Shown: positions 11,579 to 30,897, counted from the first letter of the stretch. The stretch is DNA of 64,000 bases from Candidatus Saccharimonadales bacterium (GCA_044228525.1 JBGAUQ010000002.1:168367-232366); one strand, 5' to 3'. Program-made: numbers and translations. The notes: generated from the letters alone by a model not told the origin.

Positions 11579-11646
11579 TGTTTAATGGACCTTTCTTTAC
11601 GTTTACTTAACTTATACTACATGCTTGTGCTTAGATCAAGCACGGG

Positions 11647-12084: not shown

Positions 12085-12093
12085 ATGTGCTCC

Positions 12094-12779: not shown

Positions 12780-12792
12780 GCTTATTTCCCCG

Positions 12793-14162: not shown

Positions 14163-14291
14163 TATTGTTTTGTTTTAGACGCTTATGCTCCATATTATGC
14201 GTCTGGAGGCGGTCTTTTGCAAGTCGATCGCTGATAAGAGATGCCGCCACTATACCGCTTGTGCTATAGTATTGGTAAAAATGAACAGCGT

Positions 14292-16691
14292 ATGAAAAGA
14301 AAATTATTGTATCTTGTACCCCTTATCGCCTTCGCCTTTATAACTATTGGCACGACTTTTGTGACACCAGCGACAGTTTATGCCGTTGAACCTAATGCGT
14401 CTGAATCAGATCCTGGCGCAAATGTTTCGCCACAGATCGAGTGTCCAAAATTTTCTTTTGATCTAGCCTGGGCATTTTGCCCCGTCATGAAGGCGATGGC
14501 TTTTTCTGTCGCTTCGATGGACAATTTCATAAACAAAGAGATGACTGTGGGCAGCAGCAATGACAGCAGCAATCCCAATCAGATATTTTGCGATAGTCAG
14601 TCCAGCGGCCAGGCCCTAAAGAGCTGTACCGCCTACCATAACGCCTGGACCAGCGTGCGTAACATCGCTCTTGGTCTAATGGGAATTTCGATCATTATCG
14701 TCTTGATTGCTCAGGCATTGGGCTTTGAGTTTCTCGACGCCTATACCATTCGCAAGGTGTTGCCACGACTCTTGATTTCAGCAGTCGGCATAACTTTGTC
14801 ATGGCAATTGATGCAGTTCTTCGTAACTCTATCGAACGATCTGGCCTATGGCATCAGGGTAATTATTTACCAGCCGTTCGTTGATTTTGGTGATGTAACC
14901 CTCGGCAATGGAATTTTTGGTAGTGGCACGGTCGCCAGCTTGTTGGCTATCGGAGCTCTGACGGCCTTGGGCTGGATTGGTCTGCTTAGCTATCTCTTAA
15001 CAGCCTTGTTGGCAGTATTTATTGCTTTGCTAGTACTAATCCTGCGACAGATGCTAATAATTGTCTTAATTATAATGGCGCCTATCGCCATAGCTTGTTA
15101 CGTGCTGCCTAACACCCAGAAAGTTTACAAACTCTGGTGGGAATCATTCAGCAAAGCACTCTTGATGTTCGTCATGATCGCCGCTTTGATCGCCGTTGGT
15201 CGCGTCTTCTCGGTAGTAGCCCTGACTAGCACCACCGGTACTATCGGACAATTGGTCGGTTTTGCGGCGTATTTCTTACCGTATTTCTTGATCCCAGCCA
15301 CCTTCAAATTCGCCGGTTCGGCCATGAGCCAGATTGGTGGCTTCGTCAACGACCGTGGCAAAGGCGGCTTCGACCGTCTACGCGGCTACCGCGGTAATGT
15401 CGCCAAAAAGAATATGAGCGACCTGGCTACAGGGAATCGTCTGCACAACGAGAGCACTCGCTTCTTAGGTTATGGTCGGTTTGCAAGGGGCTTTAACCGA
15501 GCCACCCGCAACACTGCCAACCTGCAAAATGCCGGATACAATCCTCGGCGCATGCGTGAACGTATGCGAGCCGCTTCAGGCACGGCGATTGTGAACCAAG
15601 CCAACGAAGCCGCCGAAAAGAACGAGGCCTTTAAGACCTTGCTCGGCAATGACGACGTCATGGAGGCCGCACTTTATGAATCTATCCACGGCGGCGGTGA
15701 AGCAACCATCCGTTCTATATTGCGAGAGCGCGGCTTCAAAGAAGACATGGTCTCAAATGCTGTCGGCGCCTTTCACAATGCCAAGAATTCTATGGGCACG
15801 GAAGCCTTCAAGACGGCACTTGCGGTTCACAGCTTCGGTACCAGTAGCGGTTGGACGCCTCGTTACAAAAAGAACGCCGCGACCGGGAATTACATTGATG
15901 CGAACGGTAATGATATCGCTGGTGGCGAACAGGGAGATGTCAGCTTGCGCGTGCTAGCGCGCGGTGGCGGCGGTGCGGGTGAGGCCCGCGCGGCAATAGA
16001 TTCCGTTGCTGGCAATGACCGTCTACGCATGATTTCAATGCTTGGCCAAGCCAGGCAGCAAGCCGAATCCAAGGGTCGATTCGATCTAGTTGGTGGCAGC
16101 TTCACCCAAGACGTTCTTAACATGGAAAGATTCCACACTGGGCAGCTTGGCGGTGTCACGCTAGGTCCTAACGGTGAGCCAAGCGGCATACAAACCCTGA
16201 CCAAGCTAACTCATGAGGGCGCGATCGACGGCCAAGCCCGACACCGCATCGCCTCCGGTCACCGCCGCTCGATGGACGCCCTGGCGCCAGAGTTCCGCAA
16301 GGCTATCGAAGCTTCACTATATAACTCCAAGGGACAGGACGGCTGGTCAGCTGACGAAGGGGTCGCCCAGCTAGCCTTTATAGCCAACTCGCTTGACGCC
16401 GCCTCAAACGGCGCGCCAGAGAACGCTCGCGTCATCAAACAGCAAGTCCTTGATCAAACGATAGACGTCAAAAATATGCCTTCCGAAATGGTCCAGGCCA
16501 TCGCCAATACGCCTCAAAAGGCCGAATGGCTGGCCTCGCAAGACAGTGTCACTATCGGCTCACTGATGGAGCAGATGCGTACCGACCCAAGCTTCTCCAG
16601 GTATCGCCGCGAATACAACCGTCCAGAGGATAGCCGACTGGCTGGCACGGCGGCTGAGCTCGAAGCCCAGCAGCAACAAGGCAAGCCTTAA
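14292..16691 (+). CDS. VirB6/TrbL-like polytopic T4SS channel protein with a long hydrophilic C-terminal domain
   Basis: Signal peptide MKRKLLYLVPLIAFAFITIGTTFVTPATVYA when started at 14292 (the listed ORF begins at 14241). About 6-7 hydrophobic spans occupy aa ~130-370, followed by ~430 hydrophilic residues. It is divergent from the pilin operon. The call rests on topology plus context, not on a sharp motif. Confidence 0.55.
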   Translation: MKRKLLYLVPLIAFAFITIGTTFVTPATVYAVEPNASESDPGANVSPQIECPKFSFDLAWAFCPVMKAMAFSVASMDNFINKEMTVGSSNDSSNPNQIFCDSQSSGQALKSCTAYHNAWTSVRNIALGLMGISIIIVLIAQALGFEFLDAYTIRKVLPRLLISAVGITLSWQLMQFFVTLSNDLAYGIRVIIYQPFVDFGDVTLGNGIFGSGTVASLLAIGALTALGWIGLLSYLLTALLAVFIALLVLILRQMLIIVLIIMAPIAIACYVLPNTQKVYKLWWESFSKALLMFVMIAALIAVGRVFSVVALTSTTGTIGQLVGFAAYFLPYFLIPATFKFAGSAMSQIGGFVNDRGKGGFDRLRGYRGNVAKKNMSDLATGNRLHNESTRFLGYGRFARGFNRATRNTANLQNAGYNPRRMRERMRAASGTAIVNQANEAAEKNEAFKTLLGNDDVMEAALYESIHGGGEATIRSILRERGFKEDMVSNAVGAFHNAKNSMGTEAFKTALAVHSFGTSSGWTPRYKKNAATGNYIDANGNDIAGGEQGDVSLRVLARGGGGAGEARAAIDSVAGNDRLRMISMLGQARQQAESKGRFDLVGGSFTQDVLNMERFHTGQLGGVTLGPNGEPSGIQTLTKLTHEGAIDGQARHRIASGHRRSMDALAPEFRKAIEASLYNSKGQDGWSADEGVAQLAFIANSLDAASNGAPENARVIKQQVLDQTIDVKNMPSEMVQAIANTPQKAEWLASQDSVTIGSLMEQMRTDPSFSRYRREYNRPEDSRLAGTAAELEAQQQQGKP

Positions 16692-16705: not shown

Positions 16706-18433
16706 TTATCGACCAAAGAAGTCAGGTCGTAAGTGTGGAGGTATTAATCCCTCCATTGGGTTAGGTGAGCCGGCTGGCACCGTTTCTTGACCAAGAGCAT
16801 ATAGCGCGTTAGCTAGGGCGATTAGCTTAGTAACTTCAACGTCGGTATTGTCGCCTTCAGGCTTATCGCTGCGCGTCCAACGATCGATCGCGTCTTCACC
16901 ATACTGACCAAGGCTGCCCATGCGGCTGCCAACTCCAACTACGGCTGGGCGATCAGTACGACTACCTGGCTGTTGACCAGGGATCCTGACTTCCATACCA
17001 CCACCCCAAGAACGAGCTTTTTGCCCTTTCTTGGCTGGCTTTTCGATGATTAGGTCGGCGTCACGGTTGCGGTTCGGGCTAGTAGTCTTGATATATATCT
17101 GGTCGCCTTCCATCGTGAAGTTCAGAACCCAGCCGGTTGTAACATCAACCAGTTGTGATCGATCAGTTTTACGGTCATGGTTAACTTGGCCTTTGGCGAC
17201 CTGAGCTGGATCAACCGCGCGACGTCGCAAGCCAGCCAGACGAGCCACGTTTGGACGACCTGGCAAGCGAGGCTGAAATACTTTGATCTCAGTTTCGATG
17301 GCAGGCGAAGAGACGTCGGCGAGAGCGTCAATCATTACGTTAACACGCTCAAGAGCAATTCGACGCTGTTCACGCGCATCCATTCGTTCCCATTCCTCAT
17401 GACCCAAGTTGTGGCCAACGAGACGGCCCTCATGAGTATCAGTTGTCGGGTAGACGCCAGCTAGTTCAGGAGGTGTGCCTTCGGGAATCAACCCGCCGAG
17501 CCCAACAAAGTGCATCGTGGCTCGACCGGCCTTGCGGCGACGGACTGCCCATGGGTTTTCTTGGTCACTGCGTCGTTCGCCGTGTGGGCGTGGAGCTGTG
17601 CGGGTCGCTAGTGGAATCAGGGCATCAACAGCGTCAAATGGGTCAGCGCCGCGATTAGGCCGATCAGCGAGTGGCAGCGGGCTTGGGCTGACTTCGCCGC
17701 GTGTTTCAACTTTAGAAATTATGATTCGGTTATGAGGGTCGTTGCCGCGATGACCAGGGAAGATTGTGCGGCCTTCGCTATCGATCCACTCTTCGCCAAT
17801 TCGACCCTGCAATATGTCCTTGCCGATTTTGCGCTGCGGCAGGGCAGAGCCGTCATCACCACGAACCGTTCTATGCAACGGAATGCTGGTTGGGAAGTCA
17901 CGGAAATCAGCCGGCGCTCCGGCAGCTTCTGCGGCAGTTAGGTCATAAACTCGTGAGCCAAAGATGTAATATCGGTTGGCTGGAGTGCCGTCCTCATGGC
18001 TGGTAGTAACGATGTACTCTTGGTCCATCGATTGGTCGCCCCACTTCATTACAGCGCCTTCGGAATCTTCTAAATTCCACTCCGTACCACGTCGTACCGT
18101 GCCGTCAGCGCGATCGTATTGAACTGGGACTTCGTCTTCAAAAGGACTCTCGTAATCTTGTCGTTCAGGCTTGCCAGTTAGTGGATTTAATTTTTTCTCA
18201 GAAGGCCTAAAGCCCTCACCCTCACGGCGACGCTTCAGCTCAGCACGAACTTCGAACTGATTTTCAGTCAGCATTTCGAGCTCATAAGGAGTAAGCTCTT
18301 GCATATTAGTTTTTTTAGTTGCTGGATCAAAAATAGGAACGTAGCCAGTGCCATGCGGATCAAACTGAATCAAATCCCTGACCGATTGAGGGTCTGTAGG
18401 GGTGGTTGAGCCGGGGCGTGGTGCGCGTTCCAT
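16706..18433 (-). CDS. hypothetical 575-aa soluble, Arg/Glu/Pro/Gly-rich protein
   Basis: A long uninterrupted ORF in the most GC-rich part of the window. It has no signal peptide, no TM span and no motif I can assign. Confidence 0.5.
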   Translation of the reverse strand: MERAPRPGSTTPTDPQSVRDLIQFDPHGTGYVPIFDPATKKTNMQELTPYELEMLTENQFEVRAELKRRREGEGFRPSEKKLNPLTGKPERQDYESPFEDEVPVQYDRADGTVRRGTEWNLEDSEGAVMKWGDQSMDQEYIVTTSHEDGTPANRYYIFGSRVYDLTAAEAAGAPADFRDFPTSIPLHRTVRGDDGSALPQRKIGKDILQGRIGEEWIDSEGRTIFPGHRGNDPHNRIIISKVETRGEVSPSPLPLADRPNRGADPFDAVDALIPLATRTAPRPHGERRSDQENPWAVRRRKAGRATMHFVGLGGLIPEGTPPELAGVYPTTDTHEGRLVGHNLGHEEWERMDAREQRRIALERVNVMIDALADVSSPAIETEIKVFQPRLPGRPNVARLAGLRRRAVDPAQVAKGQVNHDRKTDRSQLVDVTTGWVLNFTMEGDQIYIKTTSPNRNRDADLIIEKPAKKGQKARSWGGGMEVRIPGQQPGSRTDRPAVVGVGSRMGSLGQYGEDAIDRWTRSDKPEGDNTDVEVTKLIALANALYALGQETVPAGSPNPMEGLIPPHLRPDFFGR

Positions 18434-18571: not shown

Positions 18572-19564
18572 ATGGCAACATATAAACTTATTCAAGATAT
18601 CGAGGCTGAGGACAAAATCCTAGGTCCCTTAACGTTAAGACAGTTTATTTTTGCCTTGATTACGGTGTTTTTTGGCTATTTGTGCTTTATTGTGCTGACA
18701 AAAGGCGCCGCCTTTATGTTGGTGGTTTTTTTGCCGCCGTTTTTGTTCTTTGGTTTTTTTGCCTTGCCACTGGGACGCGACCAGCCAACAGAGGTCTGGG
18801 CGCTCGCCAAACTGCGTTTTTTGTTTAAGCCGCGTAAGCGAATCTGGAACCAGAGCGGCGTCAAGGAGCTGGTTACAATCACGGCTCCAAAAAAGATTGA
18901 GCGGCATCTAACTAAGGGCTACTCGCAAGTCGAGGTCGACAGCCGCCTGCATGCCTTGGCCGATACGATTGATAGCCGTGGCTGGGCTGTTAAGCACGTG
19001 AATTTGAATGCCTATGCCGCGCCGGTTTATACGCCGCCGGCCTCCGACCGCCTAGTAGACCTGTCGACTTTACCGCAAGTCGTGCCCAACAACGACATCG
19101 TAGCGGCCGACGATATGATGGATATTGATCACAGTCCAATTGCTCAGCAGTTTCAAAACATGATCGAAGAATCTTCGGCCGGCCGCCGCGAGGGCGTGGT
19201 GGAGCGCATGAATAACGCCACTCCTGTTCAGACACCGACCGCCCAGCCCCAGAATAACTACTGGTTTATGGATAATTCCGCTAAGCCTGCCTCTGACGAC
19301 GATAACAGCTTGGCTACAGTCAAGACTGGCGATTCTAGCAAACCTAAACCATATGGCAATTTGCGGTCGGTCAAAACATCTACCAAAAAAGCCCAAAAAG
19401 CGACTACACAAGCCTCTCCACCGCCGATGACAGCCCCGTCTGACCCTGCTATACTATCCTTGGCAGAAAACGACGATCTTAATGTGGCGACACTAGCCCG
19501 CGAAGCCAAGCGTGCAAAGGGTAAAGACAATTCAGACGATGAGGTCGTTGTTTCACTGCATTAG
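18572..19564 (+). CDS. PrgI/VirB3-like membrane protein with a long disordered C-terminal tail
   Basis: The N-terminus 'YKLIQDIEAEDKILGPLTLRQFIFALITVFFGYLCFIV' plus a second TM matches the PrgI-family layout. It sits just upstream of VirB4. The remaining ~230 aa are P/S/T/Q/D-rich. Confidence 0.6.
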   Translation: MATYKLIQDIEAEDKILGPLTLRQFIFALITVFFGYLCFIVLTKGAAFMLVVFLPPFLFFGFFALPLGRDQPTEVWALAKLRFLFKPRKRIWNQSGVKELVTITAPKKIERHLTKGYSQVEVDSRLHALADTIDSRGWAVKHVNLNAYAAPVYTPPASDRLVDLSTLPQVVPNNDIVAADDMMDIDHSPIAQQFQNMIEESSAGRREGVVERMNNATPVQTPTAQPQNNYWFMDNSAKPASDDDNSLATVKTGDSSKPKPYGNLRSVKTSTKKAQKATTQASPPPMTAPSDPAILSLAENDDLNVATLAREAKRAKGKDNSDDEVVVSLH

Positions 19565-19613
19565 TCCGCCAGCCGGACTTAATGCTTATCAGAAACAAAG
19601 GTGGGAACTGTAA

Positions 19614-20507
19614 ATGAATCCTCAGGCACCAAATCAGCAATATCCTGGCCAGGGGCAAATGCCTGCCGGTCAGCCGATGCCAGCGCCTGGTCCGGGGCAA
19701 ATTATTCCACCAAATCAGCGACCCGCCGGCAAAAGGCGTGGTAAAAAAGGCGGCCAGCAAGGCGCTCGCCCGGCCCAAACTCACCCCAACAGCACCCAAA
19801 ACGCGCTGCAAATTGCTGAGGTTCGCGACGGCATAGTAATCATGAACGACGGGTCCTTCCGGTCGGTAGTAATGGTTAAAAGCATCAACTTTGATCTGAT
19901 GAGCCCCCAAGAAAGAGATGCCGTTGAATACAGCTATCAAGGCTTTTTAAACTCGTTGTACTTCCCAATTCAGATATTTATACGTTCCCAAAAAGTTGAT
20001 TTGCGGCCGTATCTCGAAAAACTAGATAAAATCCGCACTGAGCACGACAATATGCTGCTAGCTCTTTTGATGGAGGACTACATCGGTTATATGGATGCTC
20101 TGAGCCAGCAAACCAACATCATGGATAAGAATTTCTACGTCGTCATACCGTTTTTCCCAGCGGTTGACGTGCAAAAGGGCATCGAGCAAAGCAAAACATT
20201 TTTGTCTGGTCTTGGCGGTTTGTTAAAGCCAAAAGAACAGCACGTCGTGATTAACGAACGTGACCTCGAAAACGCCAAAACCGAACTACGCAATCGCGTA
20301 CAGTCTGTTTTGGCAGGGCTGCAGCAATGCGGCGTCAAGGGATTGCCGCTCGACACCCAGGAATTGATCGAGCTTTACTATGACACCTACAACCCAGACA
20401 CGGCGACGCGCCAACAGATCAAGGACTACACTTCACTGACAGCTGACGTCATCACTAAGGGCCAGGGCGACGCGCCGCAAGCGCATCTAGAAAGGGAATT
20501 GCAATAG
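19614..20507 (+). CDS. T4SS-associated protein resembling a free-standing VirB4 N-terminal domain
   Basis: A P/Q/G-rich N-terminus of ~60 aa. Then 'IAEVRDGIVIMNDGSFRSVVMVKSINFDLMSPQERDAVEYSYQGFLNSLYFPIQIFIRSQKVDLRPYLEKL'. This echoes the N-terminal logic of VirB4-family ATPases but has no P-loop. The stop lies 2 nt before the virB4 start. Confidence 0.45.
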   Translation: MNPQAPNQQYPGQGQMPAGQPMPAPGPGQIIPPNQRPAGKRRGKKGGQQGARPAQTHPNSTQNALQIAEVRDGIVIMNDGSFRSVVMVKSINFDLMSPQERDAVEYSYQGFLNSLYFPIQIFIRSQKVDLRPYLEKLDKIRTEHDNMLLALLMEDYIGYMDALSQQTNIMDKNFYVVIPFFPAVDVQKGIEQSKTFLSGLGGLLKPKEQHVVINERDLENAKTELRNRVQSVLAGLQQCGVKGLPLDTQELIELYYDTYNPDTATRQQIKDYTSLTADVITKGQGDAPQAHLERELQ

Positions 20508-20509
20508 CT

Positions 20510-22438
20510 ATGGCTAAGCGTCGAAAACAGCCGAGGATGGATCCGGTCGCTATCGCCCAGGCGCAGCGTGCCCGCGAGCAACAAGAGGTTCAGGCAGCTT
20601 TCCTTAAAGGAGTCACGGCCTTGCGTGACTTCATCGCGCCAAGCTCTTTGGAATTTAGTAGTACTCATTTCCAAATCGGCACTCGTTACGCCCGAACTTA
20701 TTACGTTTACGGCTACCCACGACAGGTCTACACTGGCTGGCTGAGTAGCATGGTTAACCTCGATGAAGTTATCGATATGTCGTTATACATTTATCCGGTA
20801 GAGAGCCAGGTCGTACTAGAAAACCTGCGCAAAAAAGTCACCCAACTCGAAGCCGGTATCCAGCTTGAATCCGAAAAAGGTCACGTCCGCGATCCTGGCA
20901 AACAGGCCGCCATCATGGACGCCGAAGAGATCCGCGACAAGCTTCAGGTTGGCGAAGAACGTTTCTTCCGCTTTGGGCTTTATTTCACGATTTATGGCAG
21001 TAGTCTTGAGGAACTGGAATATATTTCGCACAAAGTCGAATCAATGCTTGGTCAGCAGCTGGTTTATAGCAAGCCGGCAACCTCGCAGCAGGAGCAGGGG
21101 CTCAACAGTACCGTGCCGCAAATGATCGACCAGCTGCAGATTCGCCGCAATATGAGCACTGGTGCCCTCTCGACAAGCTTTCCGTTTACTAGCGCCGATT
21201 TGACGCAGGATAATGGCATCCTATACGGCATTAACATGCACAATTCCGGCCTGGTCATTTTTGATCGTTTCTCTCTGGAAAACGGCAACTCGGTCGTGTT
21301 TGCTAAGTCCGGCGCAGGCAAGAGCTTCACGGTCAAATTGGAGGCCCTGCGCAGCATGATGTTTGGCACTGAAATATTCATTATCGACCCCGAAAACGAG
21401 TACCAACGAATGTGTGACGCGGTTGGCGGTGCCTACGTGCGACTTAGCCTTAACTCGTCGACACGAATCAATCCGTTTGACCTGCCCAAAGTCGTTGATT
21501 CCGATGAAGCCGACAATGCCTTGCGCTCAAATTTGATTACTCTGCATGGCTTGCTACGGCTAATGATGGGTGGCGCACAAATTCAAATGCAAGGTTCGGG
21601 CAGCACAACCATGCCGGCTCTATCACCGACCGAAGAAGCCGATCTAGATTCAGCCCTGATTGATACCTACGCCAAGGCTGGTATAACCAACGACCCACTG
21701 ACGCACACTGCTCGGCCACCGGCTATATCTGACCTCTATGACACCTTGCTGCACATGGGCGGCACTGGCCCACAGCTCGCTCAAAGACTCCGCAAATATA
21801 CTACTGGCACATTCGCAGGAATATTTTCTCAGCAAAGCAATATTGACATCAACAACCCGTTGGTCGTGTTCAACTTGCGCGATCTCGAGGATGAACTACG
21901 ACCAGTCGCCATGTATATAGTCTTGAATTACATCTGGAATAAGACAAAGAGCGACCAGAAACGCCGCCTGCTGTTGATTGACGAGGCATGGCAGCTTATG
22001 AAATATGAGGATTCAGCCAATTTCATGTTTAGCTTAGCCAAGCGAGCGCGCAAATATAATCTTGGCATTACCACGATTAGCCAGGACGTCGAGGATTTTA
22101 TGGGTTCACGGATGGGGCGAGCCATCGTCGCTAACTCTTCGATGCAGTTCCTGCTCAAACAATCGCCATCGGCAGTTGACGTCTTAGCCGATGTATTTAA
22201 GCTCACCAGCGAGGAGAAAAAACGCCTCAGCCAATTCCCGGTCGGCCAGGGTCTGTTTTTTGCAGGACAAAACCACGTCCACCTCCAAGTTGTTGCCAGT
22301 CCAACCGAAACCGGCCTGATTACAACCAACCCACAACAGGTTAAAACCATCAATTCTGCCGATATTGAGGGTAATCTCGATCAAACCCCTGAAGGCACGA
22401 TTGATCTCGAAAATCGCCTATCCCCCGGCAATGCCTAG
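20510..22438 (+). CDS. virB4: VirB4-family T4SS ATPase (Gram-positive PrgJ/TrsE-like)
   Basis: N-terminus 'FQIGTRYARTYYVYGYPRQVYTGWL', Walker A 'FAKSGAGKSF', Walker B 'RRLLLIDEAWQLM', and 'ITTISQDVEDF'. Confidence 0.9.
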   Translation: MAKRRKQPRMDPVAIAQAQRAREQQEVQAAFLKGVTALRDFIAPSSLEFSSTHFQIGTRYARTYYVYGYPRQVYTGWLSSMVNLDEVIDMSLYIYPVESQVVLENLRKKVTQLEAGIQLESEKGHVRDPGKQAAIMDAEEIRDKLQVGEERFFRFGLYFTIYGSSLEELEYISHKVESMLGQQLVYSKPATSQQEQGLNSTVPQMIDQLQIRRNMSTGALSTSFPFTSADLTQDNGILYGINMHNSGLVIFDRFSLENGNSVVFAKSGAGKSFTVKLEALRSMMFGTEIFIIDPENEYQRMCDAVGGAYVRLSLNSSTRINPFDLPKVVDSDEADNALRSNLITLHGLLRLMMGGAQIQMQGSGSTTMPALSPTEEADLDSALIDTYAKAGITNDPLTHTARPPAISDLYDTLLHMGGTGPQLAQRLRKYTTGTFAGIFSQQSNIDINNPLVVFNLRDLEDELRPVAMYIVLNYIWNKTKSDQKRRLLLIDEAWQLMKYEDSANFMFSLAKRARKYNLGITTISQDVEDFMGSRMGRAIVANSSMQFLLKQSPSAVDVLADVFKLTSEEKKRLSQFPVGQGLFFAGQNHVHLQVVASPTETGLITTNPQQVKTINSADIEGNLDQTPEGTIDLENRLSPGNA

Positions 22439-22505: not shown

Positions 22506-25500
22506 ATGGCAAGAGCCGCCAGAAAAAAAGACCCCGTCTATGATCCCGACTCCGACAGACCGATAACCCGGCCTGACCTAAGAGTCATGGAAGGCGGCGG
22601 TCAAGGTGACGGTGTGCCCCAAGGCAACCTCAGCGCTGCCAGCTCGGATTCTGCTTCAGGCGGTCTGTATAACGAGGGCGGCGATAAAGGTGGCGCAGAT
22701 CCCGACTCAAGCGGAAATCAATCCGAGGGTGATGGATCGAGTGAATCCGGCCAGTCCAGTGACGCTGTTGCGCCTGACGACCTAGAATCTAAAGAATCTA
22801 CTGGTGATTCTGGCTACGCTAACGGCTTTGATAACAACCGCCCCAACCGACGAGCCCGCGCCGGCGCCTTCGCCAAACGTAACAAAAACAAGCTAATCTG
22901 GGGCACAGCGGCCGGTGGAGGTATTTTTGGCTTAATTATCGGGGCGATGATCAGCTTGGTGCCTTTAAAAATCGAAAACATGGTTAACAATCTCGAGCAG
23001 CGCTTCATGCATCCGGTAAGCAGCGCAGTTGAGGCAACTAACCGGATTCTCCTAAGCAAATATCTACAAAAACACGTTCTGCCGGCCTATAAAAACTGCG
23101 GAACAGTAATCGATAAAAATTGTAAGATCCTGGTTACAGGCCCGGGCAATCCAGTCAAAAATTTATATAAATCATGGGCAAAAACCAGGCTCGATCTTAC
23201 CCTTAAAAACAAATATGGCATTGAGGTTAGTTATGACCAGTTTGCCAGAAACGGTAGAGGTACATTTATCTTGAGGATAGATGGACAAAACCGGAATTTT
23301 GACGTGGGGCCCAACGGCGAACAGCTCGACACCCTACTGACAGGGAGGAGATCGGACGTTACAGATGAAGTCGACCGTGTTCTGTTAAGAGAAACAAAAT
23401 GGAGACATATGATCGCCCGCTATAAGGTGGGCAGATTGATGACGCAGCTTCACAACACAAAGCGATGTATTGCCTTTTGTGGGGTGCGCGAAACAGTCAA
23501 AATGCCCAAAAAATACCTAGAGCAGCAGGCCAGGATGTTCCTAGCTGAGAGGGTTCTGGGCACACGGAGCGAAGCAACAGTAATCGCCTTACGGTGCGTA
23601 TTGTCAACCACGTGTCACCCGGAACAGGTTGACAGAACACAGTGTACTCCGGGAGTAGATTGTGAGCTTGACGGTAGACCCTTATCTGATACAGAGAGGG
23701 ATATGAGAACAGAGCTACAAAGACTAAGTGCCGGCTTTGGCAGAAATCAGCAAGACGAAATATTCCGGATTTATGGAGAAATGCGCGAGGAAGGTCTCCA
23801 AAAATATATGGTCAGGACCGTTATGACCAAGGTCTTTAATGAAGCAACGGGTAAGGTTGCCGCAAAGTCCATACCTATAATCGGCTGGATGCAAACATAT
23901 GCAGAAGTCGTAAATGGCGCATACGAAGCTGGGCCAAAAATTAAAAAACTTAGTTATGTAGTTGCAGCGGGGGCCGCAGTCCAACACTGGAACAACTACC
24001 GCTCCTACGCAGATGAAATACACACAGGCGAAGTCGACCCTATTGCTGTTGGTTCATGGAATACTTCGCTTGGCCGCGGAGAGGAAAGTGACAAAGACCC
24101 TTTAATTGGAGGGACGGCCGCGGCCGAAGAGACTCCATTGTATGGTGCTTTGATGAACAATGCTGATACTCCCGCACCGTCGGCAGTCGCTTCGCTGCTT
24201 GGCGCATTCCTGCCTGCAAGGGCATACGCGGCAACTGCCGACAACTCTGGCTCAGCCGGTAACCCAGATTATGTATGTGGCAACAACAAGCCGGTGCCTT
24301 CTGGCCAACTTGTCTGTTCAGAGGAACTGATCGGGCAGGGGAACGGGGTTGCAAACTCTGTTCGAGATTTTCTTGAAAGGCCTGAGGCACAACCGTTCGT
24401 TTTAATTGCAAAAGCATGGAAAAATACTGGCGGCTTAGCTTTCGATGCTTTCTATAGTGCTACTGGCTTCGTAGGAGATTTTTTATCGGCAGGTTTTGAG
24501 CAAGCACTTGAGAAAGGTTGCGGAAAAGTCCTCGGGATCCGACCTGCAGACGTTCCACCCTTCAGCGCGCTTGGTGCAGGTCCTGTTTGCGAAGTAAAAG
24601 ATCTTGCTGAACAATACCTGCCACAGGCAATCGAAGCCGCAACTAACTATCTTATTCCGAATCCATTCGGAACAAATATGGGAGGCGGCAGAAATTTTGA
24701 CATGATTGCAGCGGGCGCCAATGTTCAAGGCCTTGATGGCTGTGATCAAATCGGCTGCGAGGCTTCTTCGGATGCCGCTGTCGCGCAGGTAACCCAAGAT
24801 GCGATGAATAAAGAACGTGACATGTTCAAGAAAGAGTCCTTAGCGACTCGGCTGTTTGATACGGAAAGCAGCCATTCTCTTGTAACCCAAGTTGCTATGG
24901 CAACGCCGTTTGATATTCAGGGATCCTTGCAGTCTGGGTTTGCAAGCGTACTAAGCAACCCGATGGGCACCTTAGCTGGGGGCTTTGATTCCGTATTCTC
25001 ATCCGGCAAGGCCTACGCCGCCTCGGCAAAAGCGGCAAATCCATTCGGGGCAGGAGCGAAAACTTTTCCGACTAAAAAGATACCCAAAGACCCTGAGCAG
25101 TACTGGATAGACAATAATTGTGGCGACGAAAGTGAAGACGGGCCGGTTGCTAGGTGGCAAGAAGCCTCCATAAATACAACCGATGATGCCACCGGCATGC
25201 CTAAACACACAGATGTTGAACCATGCCTGCTAATTAAATACACGACAGGTGTAGTCGGGGGCAAAGAAGACACTTCTCTGCTGACAAAGGATGACTTGGC
25301 TGAGATCGGTCCCAGCTCAGGGGACAATGCGGCAGATCCATCTACCGTATCTGGCGAACCTGCTAAATTGGCCAAGGAGCTTATCAGCTCGGGCCGACTA
25401 ACTGGGCCTTCTAAATACATGGATCAAATTAAGGCAGTTTCGGAAGGCGATAACTCCTGCAATGTTAATCCCACGCTTCTCCAAATGCTATACGGGGTTG

Positions 25501-25835
25501 TGGTTAGCGATGGTCATAAGGTAGAAATTAGTTCCTTGAATAGGAAGTGCACCAACAGCCTAGCTGGCGCGGGATCAAATAGTGCCCACTTCAAAGACGG
25601 CGGCGGTCACGCCGTTGATGTTGTTGGCTTTGATGGCGGGTCTGTGGCTGGAGGTAGCGGTGATGCTACTCTTAAATATCTTAAGGCGGCTTCGAAGTAC
25701 TTACCAAAAGGCACCAGCTACGGTCAAGTTCCTAACTGCGGATCGGGTTTTAAGATTCCCGAGGGATCGAGCGCGTTCAGTGAAGACAGCTGCGACCACC
25801 AACACATTGGCGTGCCAGTAAAGCAGCTAGAGTAA
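22506..25835 (+). CDS. giant bitopic T4SS-associated protein; C-terminal LAS/M15-like metallopeptidase-type module (tentative)
   Basis: An ~125-aa G/S/D-rich cytoplasmic N-terminus, one TM (LIWGTAAGGGIFGLIIGAMISLVPL) and an ~950-aa ectodomain. The last ~120 aa carry 'SSLNRKCTNSLAGAGSNSAHFKDGGGHAVDV' and a terminal 'CDHQHIGV'. These resemble SxHxxGxAxD ... HxH zinc-peptidase motifs, but the spacing is non-canonical. Confidence 0.55.
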   Translation: MARAARKKDPVYDPDSDRPITRPDLRVMEGGGQGDGVPQGNLSAASSDSASGGLYNEGGDKGGADPDSSGNQSEGDGSSESGQSSDAVAPDDLESKESTGDSGYANGFDNNRPNRRARAGAFAKRNKNKLIWGTAAGGGIFGLIIGAMISLVPLKIENMVNNLEQRFMHPVSSAVEATNRILLSKYLQKHVLPAYKNCGTVIDKNCKILVTGPGNPVKNLYKSWAKTRLDLTLKNKYGIEVSYDQFARNGRGTFILRIDGQNRNFDVGPNGEQLDTLLTGRRSDVTDEVDRVLLRETKWRHMIARYKVGRLMTQLHNTKRCIAFCGVRETVKMPKKYLEQQARMFLAERVLGTRSEATVIALRCVLSTTCHPEQVDRTQCTPGVDCELDGRPLSDTERDMRTELQRLSAGFGRNQQDEIFRIYGEMREEGLQKYMVRTVMTKVFNEATGKVAAKSIPIIGWMQTYAEVVNGAYEAGPKIKKLSYVVAAGAAVQHWNNYRSYADEIHTGEVDPIAVGSWNTSLGRGEESDKDPLIGGTAAAEETPLYGALMNNADTPAPSAVASLLGAFLPARAYAATADNSGSAGNPDYVCGNNKPVPSGQLVCSEELIGQGNGVANSVRDFLERPEAQPFVLIAKAWKNTGGLAFDAFYSATGFVGDFLSAGFEQALEKGCGKVLGIRPADVPPFSALGAGPVCEVKDLAEQYLPQAIEAATNYLIPNPFGTNMGGGRNFDMIAAGANVQGLDGCDQIGCEASSDAAVAQVTQDAMNKERDMFKKESLATRLFDTESSHSLVTQVAMATPFDIQGSLQSGFASVLSNPMGTLAGGFDSVFSSGKAYAASAKAANPFGAGAKTFPTKKIPKDPEQYWIDNNCGDESEDGPVARWQEASINTTDDATGMPKHTDVEPCLLIKYTTGVVGGKEDTSLLTKDDLAEIGPSSGDNAADPSTVSGEPAKLAKELISSGRLTGPSKYMDQIKAVSEGDNSCNVNPTLLQMLYGVVVSDGHKVEISSLNRKCTNSLAGAGSNSAHFKDGGGHAVDVVGFDGGSVAGGSGDATLKYLKAASKYLPKGTSYGQVPNCGSGFKIPEGSSAFSEDSCDHQHIGVPVKQLE

Positions 25836-25845
25836 ACAATGCCGT

Positions 25846-28800
25846 ATGAATATATCTCGTAATTATACTTGTCCAAAAGGGATCATCCGGAAATGCTTCA
25901 GCCAGCGTTTTGTGTTTGCTTTGCTTGCTTTGCTAATGGCGTGTAACGTCGTATTGCCCGCAGCATATGCCGTACAGGCTGATGGTCCATTGCCGGAATC
26001 TGAAAAAAAGGCACTCGACAATTTCACGCACTGGGTAGGTGTTTGTGGCAGCGACATTTCAGTTGGGGACGCAATCACGGAAGCCGCTAGCATTACACCA
26101 GGTCCGATATATATAATGGGCGACTCAATAACAAATTCGGCTAAAAACTCATACAAAAATAAGTTTAAAAGTCCCTGGAAGCCTACAGTGGAAGGGCTTG
26201 ATAGTCGCCAGATCACAGGATCAAGACCCAGTCCTAGCGGGATTGGTCAAATCCAAAAAGACAAAACCAAGATTGGCGAGGCATCCGCAATCGTTATAGC
26301 TCTCGGCACGAACGGCGTGACTAACCCGGCAGCTACGACAACAGCGCAAGTCAAACAATTTATGGAAAAACTGAAGCCTCTTAACAAAAAAAATGCTCCT
26401 GTGTTTTGGGTAAACGTCATCGACAGCAAGCGCGATGCGGCATCCAAAACAACCAACAAGGCGATTGAGGAGGCCGTAGGCAATGACGCTACGATTATCG
26501 ACTGGTACACTGCCGCTAAGTCAGGCGCGAGCTTGAGCTCATTTGAGTCTGGCATACATCCGACAAAGCAAGAAGATATTTATCTATTGGTGAACACTGT
26601 TTATGAAGCAGTTTCCCAGGCAGCGCCTCCGACAACTGCCGCTGCCGCGAGCCCAGCCACTCCAACTAACGGCCCTGTTAGCACCACCAAACCAACGCCG
26701 AGCACAAACATTAAAGTCGGCGATGCCTTTAAAGGCACAGCGTCTAATTATGGTTGGGACCCTGTTACCAAATACGTAGATCCCAATGACGCGAATGATC
26801 CGGCTTCCGGCATAAGTAATGATAATCCTGGCATTGCCGTATATAACCGCGGCACTCTCAAAGGCTATTGGCTAGTTACAACCGAGGATGGCAAGAGCGC
26901 TATATTACAGCAGACTGACGTAGGGCCTGGCAGCGTAAACGCCTTTATTGATATCAATACCGTAGCCGTTCGATCAGTTTTTGGTATGGAACAAGGAAAC
27001 TCATTTCTAAAGAAGAATTGGACCTTTAAGTATCTCGGCAAAGATAAGCCAGCCGGCGCAATCACTACCGATTCTGGTAAGAAGGAAGATCGAACATCTG
27101 CAAATCCAGAATCCGCTGCTGCTGCCCCAGCACAAACAGCCCAGTTATGCTGCCCGACTTCAACAGAGAACGGTGACGCCGCCCTCGTCGGAGGAGATAA
27201 ACCTGAAAAAGTTTACAACTTTTTTGTAGGTAAGGGGCTTAAGCCTTACCAGGCAGCCGGAATCATGGGTAATATTCAGCACGAATCTGGTTTTGAGCCA
27301 AAAAAGATTGAAGGCGGTAAGCTCAGCGAAGATCCGGCGGATGCTGGGACTGGTGGATACGGTATTGTTCAGTTCACCGCCGGTAACGGCGAGCAGTCAA
27401 AAACCAAGGTAGACGGCATAATTGAAGCAGCTGGCATCACAGGCGCGCCGCATGAGCTTCAAACACAGCTTGAAATGATCTGGGCGCAATTGGAAGGCAA
27501 GGCCGGTAAATGGTCCGAGGAACAGGCAGGCAAAGACATAAAGGCGAGTAAAAACGTCGAGGACGCGACTCGGGCCTGGCAAGGCGATAACCGGGCAGGC
27601 GGTAGCTACATTGGATACGAGCGTCCCGCATCTCAGACAGGAAGCCTGCAAAAGAGAATAAAAGCCGCTAGGGGTTACCTAACTAAGTATGGCAGTGGCG
27701 GCAGTCCGGCGGCAGACGCGGCCGCCAACGACCCCAATGCCCCCGAGCCATCGCCCTCCATACAAGGGTCAGACGCATCGGTTGTTTGCTGTCCACCTGA
27801 AGGCAGCCTCGGGACAGGCGAACCCGTCGAAGACGGCTCACCCGCTGATTGGAAAAAAATGTATACTGGCGCCAACAAGGCCAAAGTCGACCGTATGGCC
27901 CGTGGCAAAATTACTCCAAATACCTTGGTAATTCACTATACAGTTGGCTCACAAGAAGGACAGGCCTTACTAGACTTTTTCACGTCTGGCGGTAGAGTAA
28001 CCGGTATTCAGTTTAATGTTGGCAAGGACGGACAAGTCTACCAGTATTACCCCTTAAATGATATGCAAAAGGTTAATCACGTTGGCAACGCCAACGCTAA
28101 GTCGATCGGCATCGAAATTACCGGTATGGATGTAACTGAAATTATTAATAACGAGAAGCAGTTCCAGGCTGTTGCCGCATTGTCTAAGTTCCTTTGCGAC
28201 AAATATCAAATTCCTTGCTCACAGCCTAAGGGCGACATTACTGGTGACGGTATCGAAGGCATGCAAGGCATGATAGGTCACGACGAGACACCGACTAATG
28301 ACCACACTGACCCAGACGCCACAAAGGCAGAAGCAACAAAAGGCATAGACCGAACCGATTCGAGCAAGCACCCCTACATGAAGAAGCTTCGTACCGCGCT
28401 GGGCTTTGATCCTACTCCAGGCAAACAAGGCGGTGGCGCAAGTGAAGCCGCAGTAACCGACCCATCAACAAATGGTCAGTGCGCCGGAAACGATTCCGCA
28501 AGCGGCACGGGCACAAAAGAAAATCCTGTAGGTGAAGGCCCAAATAAATCGCTGGCACTGGAAGCCGTTAAGTATGACACTAAAGCGAATGACAATAAGT
28601 ACACCTATAAAATGGGTGGGCTCCATGGACCACTGTCTCAGCTAAAAGCTTTCGCACAGAATGGCGGTGAAGCCGACTGTAGTGGTTTTGTAAGATACGT
28701 TATCTGGAAGGTTTATGGCCATGATGTCGGTAGTTTTGTTACCCAAGACTTACCTGGAAACAAGAACTTCCGGGAAGTCGCAGCAGCGGACGTAGCAGCT

Positions 28801-28980
28801 GGCGACATTGGGTGGAGAAGCGAACACGTTGATTTTATTACCGAGAATAAGGGTGGAGGTAAGCTCCACCAGTTCGGCGCCCACTCTACAGCTAACGACC
28901 TTTATGGCGGGGACATACCAGCCAGTGGCTACACTAAGTATTACCGCTATGTCGGCCCTAAGGGTGGAGGAGGTCAGTAG
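25846..28980 (+). CDS. five-domain secreted/anchored peptidoglycan hydrolase (SGNH esterase, RlpA-like DPBB, phage-tail-lysozyme-like, Amidase_2, NlpC/P60)
   Basis: Signal anchor, then five modules. (1) 'IYIMGDSITNS', 'ALGTNG' and 'GIHPT' give SGNH blocks I/III/V. (2) 'GTASNYGWDP...QQTDVGPG...IDIN' is RlpA-like DPBB. (3) 'YQAAGIMGNIQHESGFEP...GYGIVQFT' is lysozyme-like. (4) 'LVIHYTVG', 'NHVGNANAKSIGIEITG' and 'GHDET..DHTDP' indicate a MurNAc-L-Ala amidase. (5) 'YKMGG...ADCSGFVRYVIW...GDIGWRSEHVDFI' is NlpC/P60. Confidence 0.8.
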   Translation: MNISRNYTCPKGIIRKCFSQRFVFALLALLMACNVVLPAAYAVQADGPLPESEKKALDNFTHWVGVCGSDISVGDAITEAASITPGPIYIMGDSITNSAKNSYKNKFKSPWKPTVEGLDSRQITGSRPSPSGIGQIQKDKTKIGEASAIVIALGTNGVTNPAATTTAQVKQFMEKLKPLNKKNAPVFWVNVIDSKRDAASKTTNKAIEEAVGNDATIIDWYTAAKSGASLSSFESGIHPTKQEDIYLLVNTVYEAVSQAAPPTTAAAASPATPTNGPVSTTKPTPSTNIKVGDAFKGTASNYGWDPVTKYVDPNDANDPASGISNDNPGIAVYNRGTLKGYWLVTTEDGKSAILQQTDVGPGSVNAFIDINTVAVRSVFGMEQGNSFLKKNWTFKYLGKDKPAGAITTDSGKKEDRTSANPESAAAAPAQTAQLCCPTSTENGDAALVGGDKPEKVYNFFVGKGLKPYQAAGIMGNIQHESGFEPKKIEGGKLSEDPADAGTGGYGIVQFTAGNGEQSKTKVDGIIEAAGITGAPHELQTQLEMIWAQLEGKAGKWSEEQAGKDIKASKNVEDATRAWQGDNRAGGSYIGYERPASQTGSLQKRIKAARGYLTKYGSGGSPAADAAANDPNAPEPSPSIQGSDASVVCCPPEGSLGTGEPVEDGSPADWKKMYTGANKAKVDRMARGKITPNTLVIHYTVGSQEGQALLDFFTSGGRVTGIQFNVGKDGQVYQYYPLNDMQKVNHVGNANAKSIGIEITGMDVTEIINNEKQFQAVAALSKFLCDKYQIPCSQPKGDITGDGIEGMQGMIGHDETPTNDHTDPDATKAEATKGIDRTDSSKHPYMKKLRTALGFDPTPGKQGGGASEAAVTDPSTNGQCAGNDSASGTGTKENPVGEGPNKSLALEAVKYDTKANDNKYTYKMGGLHGPLSQLKAFAQNGGEADCSGFVRYVIWKVYGHDVGSFVTQDLPGNKNFREVAAADVAAGDIGWRSEHVDFITENKGGGKLHQFGAHSTANDLYGGDIPASGYTKYYRYVGPKGGGGQ

Positions 28981-28982
28981 CT

Positions 28983-29564
28983 ATGAGGATAAACAAGAAG
29001 CTACTTCTCGTAATATTTATTGTATTTGTATTTATAGGCGCCGGCTTATATTTACAAAAAAATACCGGTTCCAATAAAAGAGTTCTGACCGTCAATTCTA
29101 CTACTACGCCACTAACGCTTGAGCTAAATGACAGCACATATGTTATTGACGAAGATGGCCAGGAGATCTCGCTTGAACCTGGTATGTACTACTATAGAAC
29201 TAGCACTAAAATCGACGGTAAGCGTGTAGTTTTGGAGAATAAAATTGATCTCACTGACGAAAAGTCTGCTGAACTGAATTTAGATTTTTCGATATATGAC
29301 AACAAGTCTATTTCTGATGCTATTTGTAATAATTACGCTGAAGCGAAATGTCCGTTTCCGCCATCGAGCCTTAAAGTTACATACGTTGAAAAATATCAAT
29401 GGGCGGTGGTATTTATTGAAAGCCCTCAGCTCGGTGCATCTAAAGCAGTTCTCAACGTTGACCCATATACAGGTGGCTGGATTGTTGCCGGCGGACCAGA
29501 CACCGACCCAACATCAGGCTACTTCCCTGATTCCGTTGAAAGGGCATTAAACAATGCGCAATAA
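28983..29564 (+). CDS. bitopic membrane protein, unknown function (T4SS operon)
   Basis: N-terminal TM (LLLVIFIVFVFIGAGLYL) and a ~165-aa ectodomain. The start lies 2 nt after the hydrolase stop. Confidence 0.45.
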   Translation: MRINKKLLLVIFIVFVFIGAGLYLQKNTGSNKRVLTVNSTTTPLTLELNDSTYVIDEDGQEISLEPGMYYYRTSTKIDGKRVVLENKIDLTDEKSAELNLDFSIYDNKSISDAICNNYAEAKCPFPPSSLKVTYVEKYQWAVVFIESPQLGASKAVLNVDPYTGGWIVAGGPDTDPTSGYFPDSVERALNNAQ

Positions 29565-30897
29565 GAAAACCTTACTTATCCTTGCCGCGTTGTTGGCTAT
29601 CGGAGCGGCTGGATATTACCTTTACTCACACGCTAAGCCAACTAGGGAATACGGTAAGCTCAGTTCAAATCTTCAAAACTCGTATGTAATGAATGACTCG
29701 ATATACTTCTATACTGGGTCCTTTTTTGCCAAATATAACACCAATAACACTGTAACGAGGGTGAGTGATTATTTATATATTGCTAGTGGTATAAATAATG
29801 TTAGCTGGAAGCCCGATGCGGTTTTATTCCAAACAAATCCGCTTCCGCAAGATCGAGATGACATCACTACGGCGGCAAGCGGCTTAGGCTCACAACAATA
29901 CTCGCCTCAGTGGTGGAAATACAGCTTTAAAGACAAACAATATCAGCTGCTTAGCTTCGGCAATATTAGTGGCTGTAAGCTTGTAGCGCAGATAAATGAC
30001 ACTGAGCTCGCCTGTAGTAAAGAGCAAGAACCCGGCAGCAGCGCGACAGACCTATATCTATATGATCTATCGAGCAAAACTTCAAAAAAACTACTTAGCA
30101 GCGATAACCCAATCGATCAGTTGTCGGGTAGCGATAAAACCATTTATTACACCGAAACAAGACTGAGTGGAAAGCAGTCGCTGAAAGCAATTAGCACAAA
30201 ATCATCATCATCCCGACTATTGTATGAGGGGGCAGGTAATATCACATATGCTGTAGCGCCAAATAACGAGGTCCTTGTTAGTGATGCGCTCGGGTCTAAC
30301 GCGTCAGGCAAAACAACCAAAGATGACATATCTCATTCCGAAGAATCCAGTCCTGTAGCTAGCACACAAAAAATTGTATTAATAAATGGCGGTGAAGCCG
30401 TTGTCGAAAAGCAGTTCAAAAGCTTGCCGGTAACGGTTTTTGTGGGCAGTGCAGGGCAGCTAATGTATTCATCGCTAGACGGATCTGTAAATGCCGTTAC
30501 AGAGGACGGTATTGAAACTCTCGATAAAGCCACAAAAAATCAGCTTGAGACTGGCGATACATTGTATAAGCTAAACGAGCGGCTGTACCTAATAAATAAT
30601 AGAAATGAGTTGCTTACGTCACCAGACGATATCAACACAAGTCATCGTAGCCCGGGAAGTTTTGACGGTGTAAAAGACAATGATGACCGTAGCGACTCTT
30701 GGATAGATGACACAGACATGAATTCTCCTGGGGGTTATTTGTATTCAAATAGCGTGCCTTCGTCATTACAGCAATTAGAAATCGATAAGTGGTTGATTAA
30801 ACGCGGTTTTTGGCCATCGGAATTTAGCTTTACTTGGGTAGTAGACGGTGTGGATTTCAATGCGCCCGTCAGACCAAACTACGTAATTATCCAGTAG
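29554..30897 (+). CDS. bitopic membrane protein, possible beta-propeller ectodomain (T4SS operon)
   Basis: N-terminal TM (LLILAALLAIGAAGYYL). Repetitive beta-rich segments such as 'IYYTETRLSGKQSLKAIS' and 'ITYAVAPNNEVLVSD' recall TolB-like propellers. It overlaps the previous gene by 11 nt. Confidence 0.4.
   Translation: MRNKKTLLILAALLAIGAAGYYLYSHAKPTREYGKLSSNLQNSYVMNDSIYFYTGSFFAKYNTNNTVTRVSDYLYIASGINNVSWKPDAVLFQTNPLPQDRDDITTAASGLGSQQYSPQWWKYSFKDKQYQLLSFGNISGCKLVAQINDTELACSKEQEPGSSATDLYLYDLSSKTSKKLLSSDNPIDQLSGSDKTIYYTETRLSGKQSLKAISTKSSSSRLLYEGAGNITYAVAPNNEVLVSDALGSNASGKTTKDDISHSEESSPVASTQKIVLINGGEAVVEKQFKSLPVTVFVGSAGQLMYSSLDGSVNAVTEDGIETLDKATKNQLETGDTLYKLNERLYLINNRNELLTSPDDINTSHRSPGSFDGVKDNDDRSDSWIDDTDMNSPGGYLYSNSVPSSLQQLEIDKWLIKRGFWPSEFSFTWVVDGVDFNAPVRPNYVIIQ

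Follow-up and report, generated by a model that had tools for sequence, protein, structure and literature searches.

How does a bacterium that lives attached to another bacterium get through the wall of its partner? This question is raised by a type IV secretion system (T4SS) locus of a Candidatus Saccharimonadales bacterium, which lies in the 64,000-nucleotide stretch of DNA that we analysed, hereafter the window (GCA_044228525.1 JBGAUQ010000002.1:168367-232366). One gene of this locus encodes a protein of 1044 amino acids (aa), here called the hydrolase, in which five distinct peptidoglycan-related modules are joined on a single chain. Attachment to a host bacterium is the way of life of Saccharibacteria and other Patescibacteria, whose T4SS was the first to be shown essential for the growth of its bearer. 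We put the probability at about 70% that the hydrolase is the wall-breaching hydrolase of the Saccharibacteria T4SS, one that corresponds in function to VirB1, PrgK and CwlT and in position to SEML1_0006 from Candidatus (Ca.) Southlakia epibionticum ML1, and that the wall it targets includes that of the host. If the activities suggested by its modules are real, the protein would be a concrete candidate for how an epibiont of about 0.2 µm passes a thick actinobacterial wall.

The hydrolase gene was found exactly where an earlier note, made from this DNA alone, had placed a 1044-aa open reading frame (ORF). It has an ATG start and begins 11 nt past the stop codon of an upstream ORF for a 1109-aa protein. 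The note had likened the product to wall-remodelling proteins of T4SSs, and the setting of the gene agrees with this. Genes follow in the order PrgI, TraC-like protein, VirB4, 1109-aa protein, hydrolase, two exported proteins, recF-dnaN-dnaA and yidC, with VirB4 encoded two genes upstream of the hydrolase and PrgI and four VirB2-like pilins in the same cluster (Table 1). Ten related loci were found in the reference genome collection, all of them in Candidatus Saccharibacteria metagenome-assembled genomes and all with shared gene order, and the order is kept across 14 loci in total (L001-L014). Proximity to virB4 and the combination of a hydrophobic N-terminal helix with glycan- and peptide-cleaving module types place the hydrolase in the class of T4SS-associated wall hydrolases. 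The helix is predicted to be a Sec signal peptide or a membrane anchor. A lysin borne by a prophage or an integrative and conjugative element was considered and rejected, as the locus is chromosomal, lies beside dnaA and is syntenic across Saccharibacteria.

The gene order recurs in SEML1_0001-0010 of Ca. S. epibionticum, where the slot of the hydrolase is occupied by SEML1_0006, which lies with dnaA-dnaN-recF, two small exported genes and the genes for a protein of about 1110 aa, VirB4, a protein of about 295 aa and PrgI. SEML1_0006 has 643 aa with a glucosaminidase, a Phage_lysozyme2 and a cysteine proteinase domain, and was found to be essential for epibiotic growth by transposon sequencing (Wang et al. 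2023, PMC10633639, Tables S1/S2). We liken the two proteins by position and by the domains described: Phage_lysozyme2 and a cysteine peptidase domain are common to both, whereas SEML1_0006 has only three modules, one of them a GH73-type glucosaminidase, and lacks the SGNH, double-psi beta-barrel (DPBB) and Amidase_2 modules of the hydrolase. As SEML1_0006 holds the same position, the hydrolase gene belongs to a kind already known, namely that of T4SS hydrolases of the VirB1/PrgK type. The neighbouring SEML1_0007 (1113 aa, C-terminal Hedgehog/DD-peptidase fold) is essential as well, and so are SEML1_0004 and SEML1_0005, annotated as PEGA/Ig-like and prealbumin-like (PMC10633639). According to Quiñonero-Coronel et al., 'peptidase and lysozyme homologues downstream of virB4' probably take the place of VirB1 (PMC12102498), and the Saccharibacteria T4SS is listed with a VirB1-like component in a 2025 review. 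A literature search for earlier accounts of hydrolase-module diversity in Saccharibacteria found passing mentions only.

Table 1. Features of the T4SS locus, the hydrolase and the remainder of the window (nucleotide positions counted from the first letter of the window).
Feature	Position	Strand	Evidence
Terminase large subunit (Terminase_6C) and ParB-N6/N4 DNA methylase fusion	1441-5399	-	
Four VirB2-like T4SS pilin genes	11153-14162	-	Pfam T4SS_pilin, E 7e-17 to 7e-8
816-aa T4SS-locus gene	14241-16691	+	
575-aa T4SS-locus gene	16706-18433	-	
PrgI (VirB3-like), 297-aa TraC-like protein, VirB4 ATPase	18572-22438	+	Pfam PrgI E 3e-12, P-loop_TraG E 1.8e-27; TraC-like from the annotation of L011
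1109-aa protein, positional counterpart of SEML1_0007	22506-25835	+	Synteny
Five-module peptidoglycan hydrolase gene (HYD)	25846-28980	+	ORF listing, translation, homologues, whole-protein AF2 model
N-terminal hydrophobic helix, aa 11-44, with AYA-VQ site	25876-25977	+	Sequence reading, AF2
SGNH (GDSL) module, aa 81-260	26086-26625	+	Family profile, Foldseek, sub-threshold Pfam Lipase_GDSL_2
DPBB module, aa 285-417 (model about 280-417)	26698-27096	+	AF2, Foldseek, profile
CC site, aa 435-436	about 27148-27153	+	
Phage_lysozyme2 module, aa 445-617	27178-27696	+	Pfam PF18013
CC site, aa 648-649	about 27787-27792	+	
Amidase_2 (PGRP/AmpD-type) module, aa 689-860	27910-28425	+	Pfam PF01510
NlpC/P60-like cysteine peptidase module, aa 895-1037	28528-28956	+	Profile A3; Pfam sub-threshold
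Two downstream genes, g193 (193 aa) and g447 (447 aa)	28983-30897 (28983-29564 and 29554-30897)	+	ORFs
Surface-polysaccharide biosynthesis cluster	about 37100-61400		
GlmS	61374-63203		

The five modules lie on the chain where they had been reported, and Pfam, profile searches and structure prediction agree with the earlier boundaries. Two of them, Phage_lysozyme2 and Amidase_2, are certain from Pfam alone; the whole-protein scan gave strong matches for both and a weak one for NLPC_P60, and an NCBIfam scan gave nothing beyond an AmpD match far below threshold. An AlphaFold2 (AF2) model of the whole protein was built on an alignment (A6) of co-linear full-length proteins. In this model the linkers (aa 261-275, 418-444, most of 618-688, and 861-887) have a predicted local distance difference test (pLDDT) score below 50. 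All linkers had been described as rich in P, T and A; a richness in P/T/A/S/G is clear in the first two but not in the other two.

A fusion produced by an assembly error had been named as one possible objection to such a protein. The hydrolase differs at three residues from a database cluster representative (P0001), and a homologue, P0002, carries the same five modules at 72% identity. The identical P0002 sequence is present on at least five contigs, and the four contigs shown come from four samples and have the same gene context. Moreover, P0040 (996 aa) has the arrangement lysozyme2-DPBB-lysozyme2-amidase-P60 and is 57% identical over aa 275-1041 of the hydrolase. Because P0002 recurs identically across samples and P0040 has the same core order, an assembly chimera was rejected. 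The complete five-domain order is thus conserved in P0002, whereas P0040 shares only its DPBB-lysozyme-amidase-P60 part. This core is common to just three sequence clusters and all five modules to two of them, so that, judged from the sequences compared, the five-module form of the T4SS hydrolase is rare, and it is described here as new.

The Phage_lysozyme2 match (PF18013) covers aa 454-615 (E 3.6e-25, 89.2 bits against a cut-off of 28.2). Its putative catalytic glutamate, E480 in the motif GNIQHESGF, is at least 90% conserved in 26 homologues, and the module was modelled with a pLDDT of about 95. Foldseek matched it to the tail enzyme gp13 of phi29 (3csq/3csr) and, in BFVD, to phage tail lysozymes; a search of PDB sequences gave no match. 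The Amidase_2 match (PF01510) covers aa 690-823 (E 1.7e-17, 64.4 bits against a cut-off of 26). The module aligns to the clostridial endolysin amidase PDB 6srt (E 8e-7), and Foldseek matched it to 6ssc, 6srt, 7f5i and PGRPs. Among six to seven Amidase_2 homologues, H697, E757 and H812 are invariant, H820 is also conserved and D822 is found in 6/7. From motif comparison with T7 lysozyme and AmpD, we take H697, H812 and D822 to be candidate Zn ligands, accompanied by a general base. Both modules therefore pass the threshold of their family with the key residues conserved.

Scanned as a fragment, the SGNH module lies below the cut-off of Pfam Lipase_GDSL_2 (E 1.6e-5, 25.9 bits against 32.9). In an alignment of 15 homologous N-terminal domains (A7), S94 of Block I (GDS) and N156 of Block III (GTNG) are invariant and H238 of Block V is at least 90% conserved. 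These are the Ser, Asn and His of the SGNH/GDSL superfamily; its Block II Gly and its Asp at H-3 are absent, and Block II reads D-S-R (S120-R121) with Ser in place of the usual Gly. The A7 profile matches SGNH structures, best of all SaOatA_C (6wn9/6vjp) at E 5e-9. The best Foldseek match of the module, taken from the whole-protein model, was 6vjp (E 6e-6, TM-score 0.78 on the target), which is SaOatA_C (PMC9487903), followed by OatA_C of S. pneumoniae (5ufy), PatB of N. gonorrhoeae and C. jejuni, and the C. jejuni GDSL esterase Cj0610c. By this model, the closest solved structure is the peptidoglycan O-acetyltransferase domain of OatA, which is a new finding.

The motifs GDS, S/G-R-Q, LGTNG, IDW and HP are common to the SGNH module, OatA_C (S. 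aureus 6VJP/6WN9; S. pneumoniae 5UFY), PatB and Cj0610c (8GR2). The module differs from them in that it has no AT3 or MBOAT partner domain and hence no path from an acetyl donor. Pfam scans found no Acyl_transf_3 (AT3) domain in the hydrolase, which is thus not a member of the SGNH-AT3 family despite its resemblance to OatA_C. Because such a donor partner is missing, de-O-acetylation by hydrolysis is the likelier direction, and the module presumably acts as an esterase on the 6-O-acetyl group of N-acetylmuramic acid (MurNAc).

No Pfam match was obtained for the DPBB region. A word-indexed search with the isolated domain gave just 1 protein, and an exhaustive HMMER search with aa 285-415 against 1.84 billion representative proteins was used instead, which found 187 relatives. 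In a 44-sequence alignment, D358 (QTDxGP) is at least 90% conserved and D369 is invariant. The AF2 model built on this alignment has a pLDDT of 93.5, and most of its best Foldseek matches have a double-psi beta-barrel (kiwellin, loosenin, PA4485 with a TM-score of 0.69 on the target, the Streptomyces papain inhibitor, B. subtilis EXLX1 and cerato-platanin); MltA ranks much lower. The profile matches PA4485 (4avr, E 0.0099) and cerato-platanin (E 0.36), and 12/44 of the relatives show weak Pfam DPBB_1 matches (best E 2.6e-4). According to the model, the module has a double-psi beta-barrel fold, in common with RlpA, PA4485 and the expansin-loosenin-kiwellin proteins, and its D-x-G-P...D aligns with NDRGP...IDVS of PA4485. 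Compared with known DPBB proteins it carries long insertions, and TM-scores reach just 0.4-0.5 when normalised to the query.

The region had been called RlpA-like. As to the fold this was right, but the label of an RlpA-type lytic transglycosylase is not established, since the hydrolase has no SPOR domain and the nearest structures are non-enzymatic or uncharacterised; compared with RlpA and DPBB_1, the module also stays under the Pfam DPBB_1 threshold, and its catalytic role is only a candidate one. The domain co-occurs in its relatives with SLT, CHAP, M23, M15 and Amidase_2, and because of these fusions we regard it as a wall-associated module. Among 50,697 phage records, the module had neither a nucleotide nor a tblastn match. 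The DPBB family (P0032-P0175), with about 187 representatives, escapes detection by Pfam DPBB_1. The domain is often N-terminal in short proteins (150-400 aa), it is also found in one protein of 3020 aa, and one member of the family carries six repeats.

For the C-terminal module, a word-indexed search with the isolated domain gave just 4 proteins. A profile of 5 sequences (A3) matches the NLP/P60 structure 6b8c (E 1.1e-4) in a region that includes the Cys motif, and RipB of M. tuberculosis (3pbi, E 0.056) in an alignment that spans the Cys to the His motif. Both the D-C-S-G and the His motif are present: D944-C945-S946-G (DCSGF), H994 and H1008/H1013 are invariant in six P60-like sequences. 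Weak profile evidence thus points to an NlpC/P60-like cysteine peptidase. Taken together, the positions of nucleophile or general base are conserved in every module, and each module thus has plausible catalytic residues, although the triad acid of the SGNH module is non-canonical and catalysis by the DPBB module is a candidate function.

We also noticed cysteine motifs at the module junctions. A CC or CxC motif precedes the Phage_lysozyme2 module by about 20 residues in 24/30 instances across homologues and is followed by the pattern (S/T)-L-x-G-x-x-N-x-E-K; the hydrolase itself has two CC sites (Table 1). A CCPP motif stands before Amidase_2, and a single Cys before P60 and C39 modules. A disulfide, a processing site or a junction signature are possibilities for these motifs.

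In the mechanism that we favour, the N-terminal signal or anchor helix would export the hydrolase, and five independently folded modules would be presented on flexible linkers. Acting together, the modules could attack all the main classes of peptidoglycan bonds. The OatA_C-like SGNH module would remove the MurNAc 6-O-acetyl ester, Phage_lysozyme2 would cut the glycan backbone, and the DPBB module would cleave, or loosen and bind, glycan; Amidase_2 would cut the MurNAc-L-Ala amide bond and the NlpC/P60 module the stem peptide. The probable task of the hydrolase would be to breach a thick wall of the Gram-positive type locally, which would let the T4SS and its pili span the junction between epibiont and host.

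Known T4SS-linked hydrolases are more modest in composition. PrgK, CwlT and TcpG carry two to three lytic domains, and the hydrolase exceeds them with its five modules, as the earlier note had pointed out. Together with TraG (pIP501), PrgK (pCF10), CwlT (ICEBs1) and TcpG (pCW3) draw their two to three modules from SLT, GH73, LytM, CHAP or NlpC/P60; to our knowledge, none has been described with an SGNH, DPBB or Amidase_2 module. Similar to the hydrolase, they are encoded in T4SS clusters (of the mating-pair-formation MPF-FATA type), have an N-terminal anchor or signal and pair a glycan-cleaving with a peptidase domain (in part from PMC12102498). PrgK-type hydrolases serve DNA conjugation, whereas the Saccharibacteria T4SS has been shown in Ca. 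S. epibionticum to be essential for epibiotic growth and to lack a nearby relaxase or coupling protein (PMC10633639).

The other likeness is to phage virion hydrolases such as phi29 gp13, which is the fold match, tail lysozymes and tape-measure-borne lysins. The best BFVD matches of the hydrolase are multi-domain phage hydrolases and tail lysozymes, some of them on tail proteins. Phage tail lysozymes act on the wall from outside, and the LysA endolysins of actinophages show mosaic shuffling of catalytic modules. As far as we know, phage enzymes rarely exceed three catalytic modules. In contrast to these enzymes, the hydrolase gene is cellular, chromosomal and linked to a T4SS.

A comparison with two of the related loci, L001 and L011, showed how differently the parts of the locus evolve. 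The core proteins are equally close to both (VirB4 97%, 297-aa protein 95-96%, DnaN 93%, RecF 89-90%). The hydrolase is 72% identical to its L011 counterpart over the full length, and to that of L001 at 56% in the SGNH part only. The 1109-aa protein is likewise 71% identical in L011 over the full length, and its C-terminus diverges in L001. A blastn comparison of the window with L001 gave no similarity across 25274-30881, whereas the flanks align at 73-81%; the last ~170 aa of the 1109-aa protein lie within this variable block. Downstream, g193 abuts the hydrolase gene and g447 overlaps the end of g193, and both products have a hydrophobic segment at the N-terminus. The two genes are conserved, at 61% and 58% to L011, where the hydrolase type is the same (L011-L014), and are undetectable in L001-L010, where the hydrolase is different. 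The hydrolase, the C-terminus of the 1109-aa protein, g193 and g447 are thus a hypervariable, co-varying cassette in a conserved locus, which is a new observation. No confident family was found for g193 and g447, nor similarity to a known immunity or inhibitor family; they are candidates for an inhibitor, an immunity protein, an adhesin or a targeting factor.

The C-terminus of the 1109-aa protein, which belongs to this cassette, contains a LAS-like H-x6-D...H-x-H motif (SAHFKDGGGHAVDV ... CDHQHIGV). The protein has no Pfam or PDB sequence match, and a separate search with the C-terminus gave nothing meaningful; its assignment as a DD-peptidase hence rests on this motif and on the literature on its counterpart. 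Through this protein, the system may possess a sixth wall-active domain.

Mosaicism was seen in the hydrolase slot of the other loci. Nine complete slot orthologues among L001-L010 show eight different Pfam combinations (L007 and L009 are alike), with beta-lactamase-like, Amidase_3, GH75-like, C39_2, GH3, M15_4, M23 and other modules. SGNH is joined to lysozyme2 and a beta-lactamase-like module in L001, GH75-like to Amidase_3 and lysozyme2 in L002, and GDSL to C39_2 in L004; GDSL is further combined with GH3 and lysozyme2 in L005, with lysozyme2 and M15_4 in L006, and with lysozyme2 and M23 in L010. Database homologues of the hydrolase add CHAP, VanY and glucosaminidase modules.

Three observations lead us to favour a target that includes the wall of the host, which we regard as plausible: swapping and divergence are much faster in the cassette than in the T4SS and replication genes around it, the nearest analogues in BFVD are phage tail lysozymes and multi-domain hydrolases, and the SGNH module is related to peptidoglycan O-acetyl enzymes. 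A hypervariable cassette between near-identical T4SS and replication genes provides a genomic marker, which in cultured strains can be set against the identity of the host, and it is amenable to manipulation with existing Saccharibacteria genetics. The hydrolase and its cassette thus give access to the question of how epibionts get past the walls of their hosts and perhaps to that of host specificity, and the modules of the hydrolase are candidate lysins for O-acetylated, lysozyme-resistant Gram-positive walls. It is tempting, if rather speculative, to go one step further and to see the block at ~25.3-30.9 kb as a swappable 'wall-opener kit' that sets which host walls can be breached, with modules matched to the peptidoglycan chemotype of the host, including O-acetylation, and g193 and g447 as cognate inhibitors, immunity or targeting factors. 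If this were true, a single recombining cassette within the T4SS locus would encode part of the host range of these epibionts.

Other uses of the hydrolase have to be weighed against a host-wall target. It could be a housekeeping autolysin that remodels only the wall of its producer for T4SS or pilus assembly, the classic role of VirB1 and PrgK, in which case the extra modules would be redundant. This role is established for Gram-positive T4SS-linked hydrolases (PMC12102498), the gene lies inside a T4SS operon, and the anchor-like N-terminal helix would hold the protein at the surface of the producer. We still think it unlikely, since module sets differ among close relatives whose core proteins are 93-97% identical; an own-wall-only role hardly explains why these sets vary while the wall of the producer is presumably conserved. 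The kinship with phage hydrolases noted above, including enzymes carried on tail proteins, also speaks for an attack from outside. A more remote idea, improbable in our view, is that the enzyme strips host peptidoglycan for amino sugars and amino acids that the epibiont cannot make. Saccharibacteria do not make amino acids or nucleotides de novo (PMC10633639), and relatives in the same slot carry exo-acting or recycling types, namely GH3 (NagZ-like), a beta-lactamase/DD-peptidase fold and M15. However, the modules of the hydrolase itself are of endo-acting types, the gene is embedded in and co-oriented with T4SS genes, and no muropeptide uptake or catabolic genes adjoin it within the window. 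The lowest probability goes to an antibacterial effector, in which the hydrolase would be a toxin to competitors or hosts and g193 and g447 its cognate immunity proteins or inhibitors. Both genes follow the hydrolase in tandem, have hydrophobic N-termini and co-vary with the hydrolase type, and SEML1_0004 and SEML1_0005, which correspond to them by position, are essential (PMC10633639), as is expected of immunity genes. Against this, neither resembles a known immunity or inhibitor family, the annotated folds of the S. epibionticum counterparts could equally be those of adhesins, and the Sec-type N-terminus suggests that the hydrolase is not a substrate translocated by the T4SS.

The most serious alternative concerns the number of activities, in that the DPBB and/or the SGNH module may be glycan-binding or targeting domains; we lean against such binding-only modules but give them real weight. 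Several findings pull in this direction and weigh against the wall-breaching hydrolase as we describe it. The DPBB module has non-hydrolytic or uncharacterised proteins as its closest structural neighbours (kiwellin, loosenin, expansin, papain inhibitor, PA4485). The esterase that the earlier note had proposed for O-acetylated glycan is indeed related to OatA_C, PatB and Cj0610c, but its nearest structures are O-acetyltransferases, not esterases, and the acid of Block V is shifted: the block reads ESGIH, with Ser at H-3 and Glu (E234) at H-4, in place of the Asp of OatA_C and the canonical D-x-x-H, while distant relatives in A7 keep D or E at H-3. The NlpC/P60 module, whose Cys and His motifs had been recognised correctly, scores under the 23-bit Pfam cut-off of NLPC_P60 (PF00877) with 12.3 bits in the whole protein (aa 921-987, E 0.17) and 15.8 bits as a fragment (E 0.014); it is poorly modelled (pLDDT just 50-65) and had no match among the best 50 Foldseek structures. 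On the other side, conserved positions are found in every module (S94/N156/H238, D358/D369, E480, H697/E757/H812/D822 and C945/H994/H1008), and active SGNH enzymes with a Ser-His dyad or a Block II Ser are known (PMC9487903). Further reservations apply to the wall-breaching role as such. Essentiality is known only for the three-domain counterpart in another genus, rapid divergence of a surface protein can also reflect phage or immune pressure and not a match to the host wall, and activities and localisation are what we infer.

Some further features of the locus and of the window may be mentioned. The pilin array has a gap between the second and the third gene. Such an array is not usual in a monoderm T4SS; the one reported from Ca. 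S. epibionticum corresponds to it. No Pfam match was found for the 575-aa and 816-aa T4SS-locus genes. The 575-aa gene shares 66% with its L001 counterpart, while neighbouring genes share 95-97%, and is thus a fast-evolving component of the locus; it lies within the most G+C-rich stretch of the window (0.56). The window contains no tRNA or Rfam features. The phage-like genes at its left end, a terminase gene and a ParB-methylase fusion, suggest a prophage remnant or a mobile element. On the right, a large surface-polysaccharide biosynthesis cluster contains several GT4 glycosyltransferases and a Wzm/Wzt ABC exporter, together with GDP-mannose 4,6-dehydratase, epimerases, methyltransferases, UDP-glucose dehydrogenase and a nucleotidyl transferase, and is followed by GlmS.

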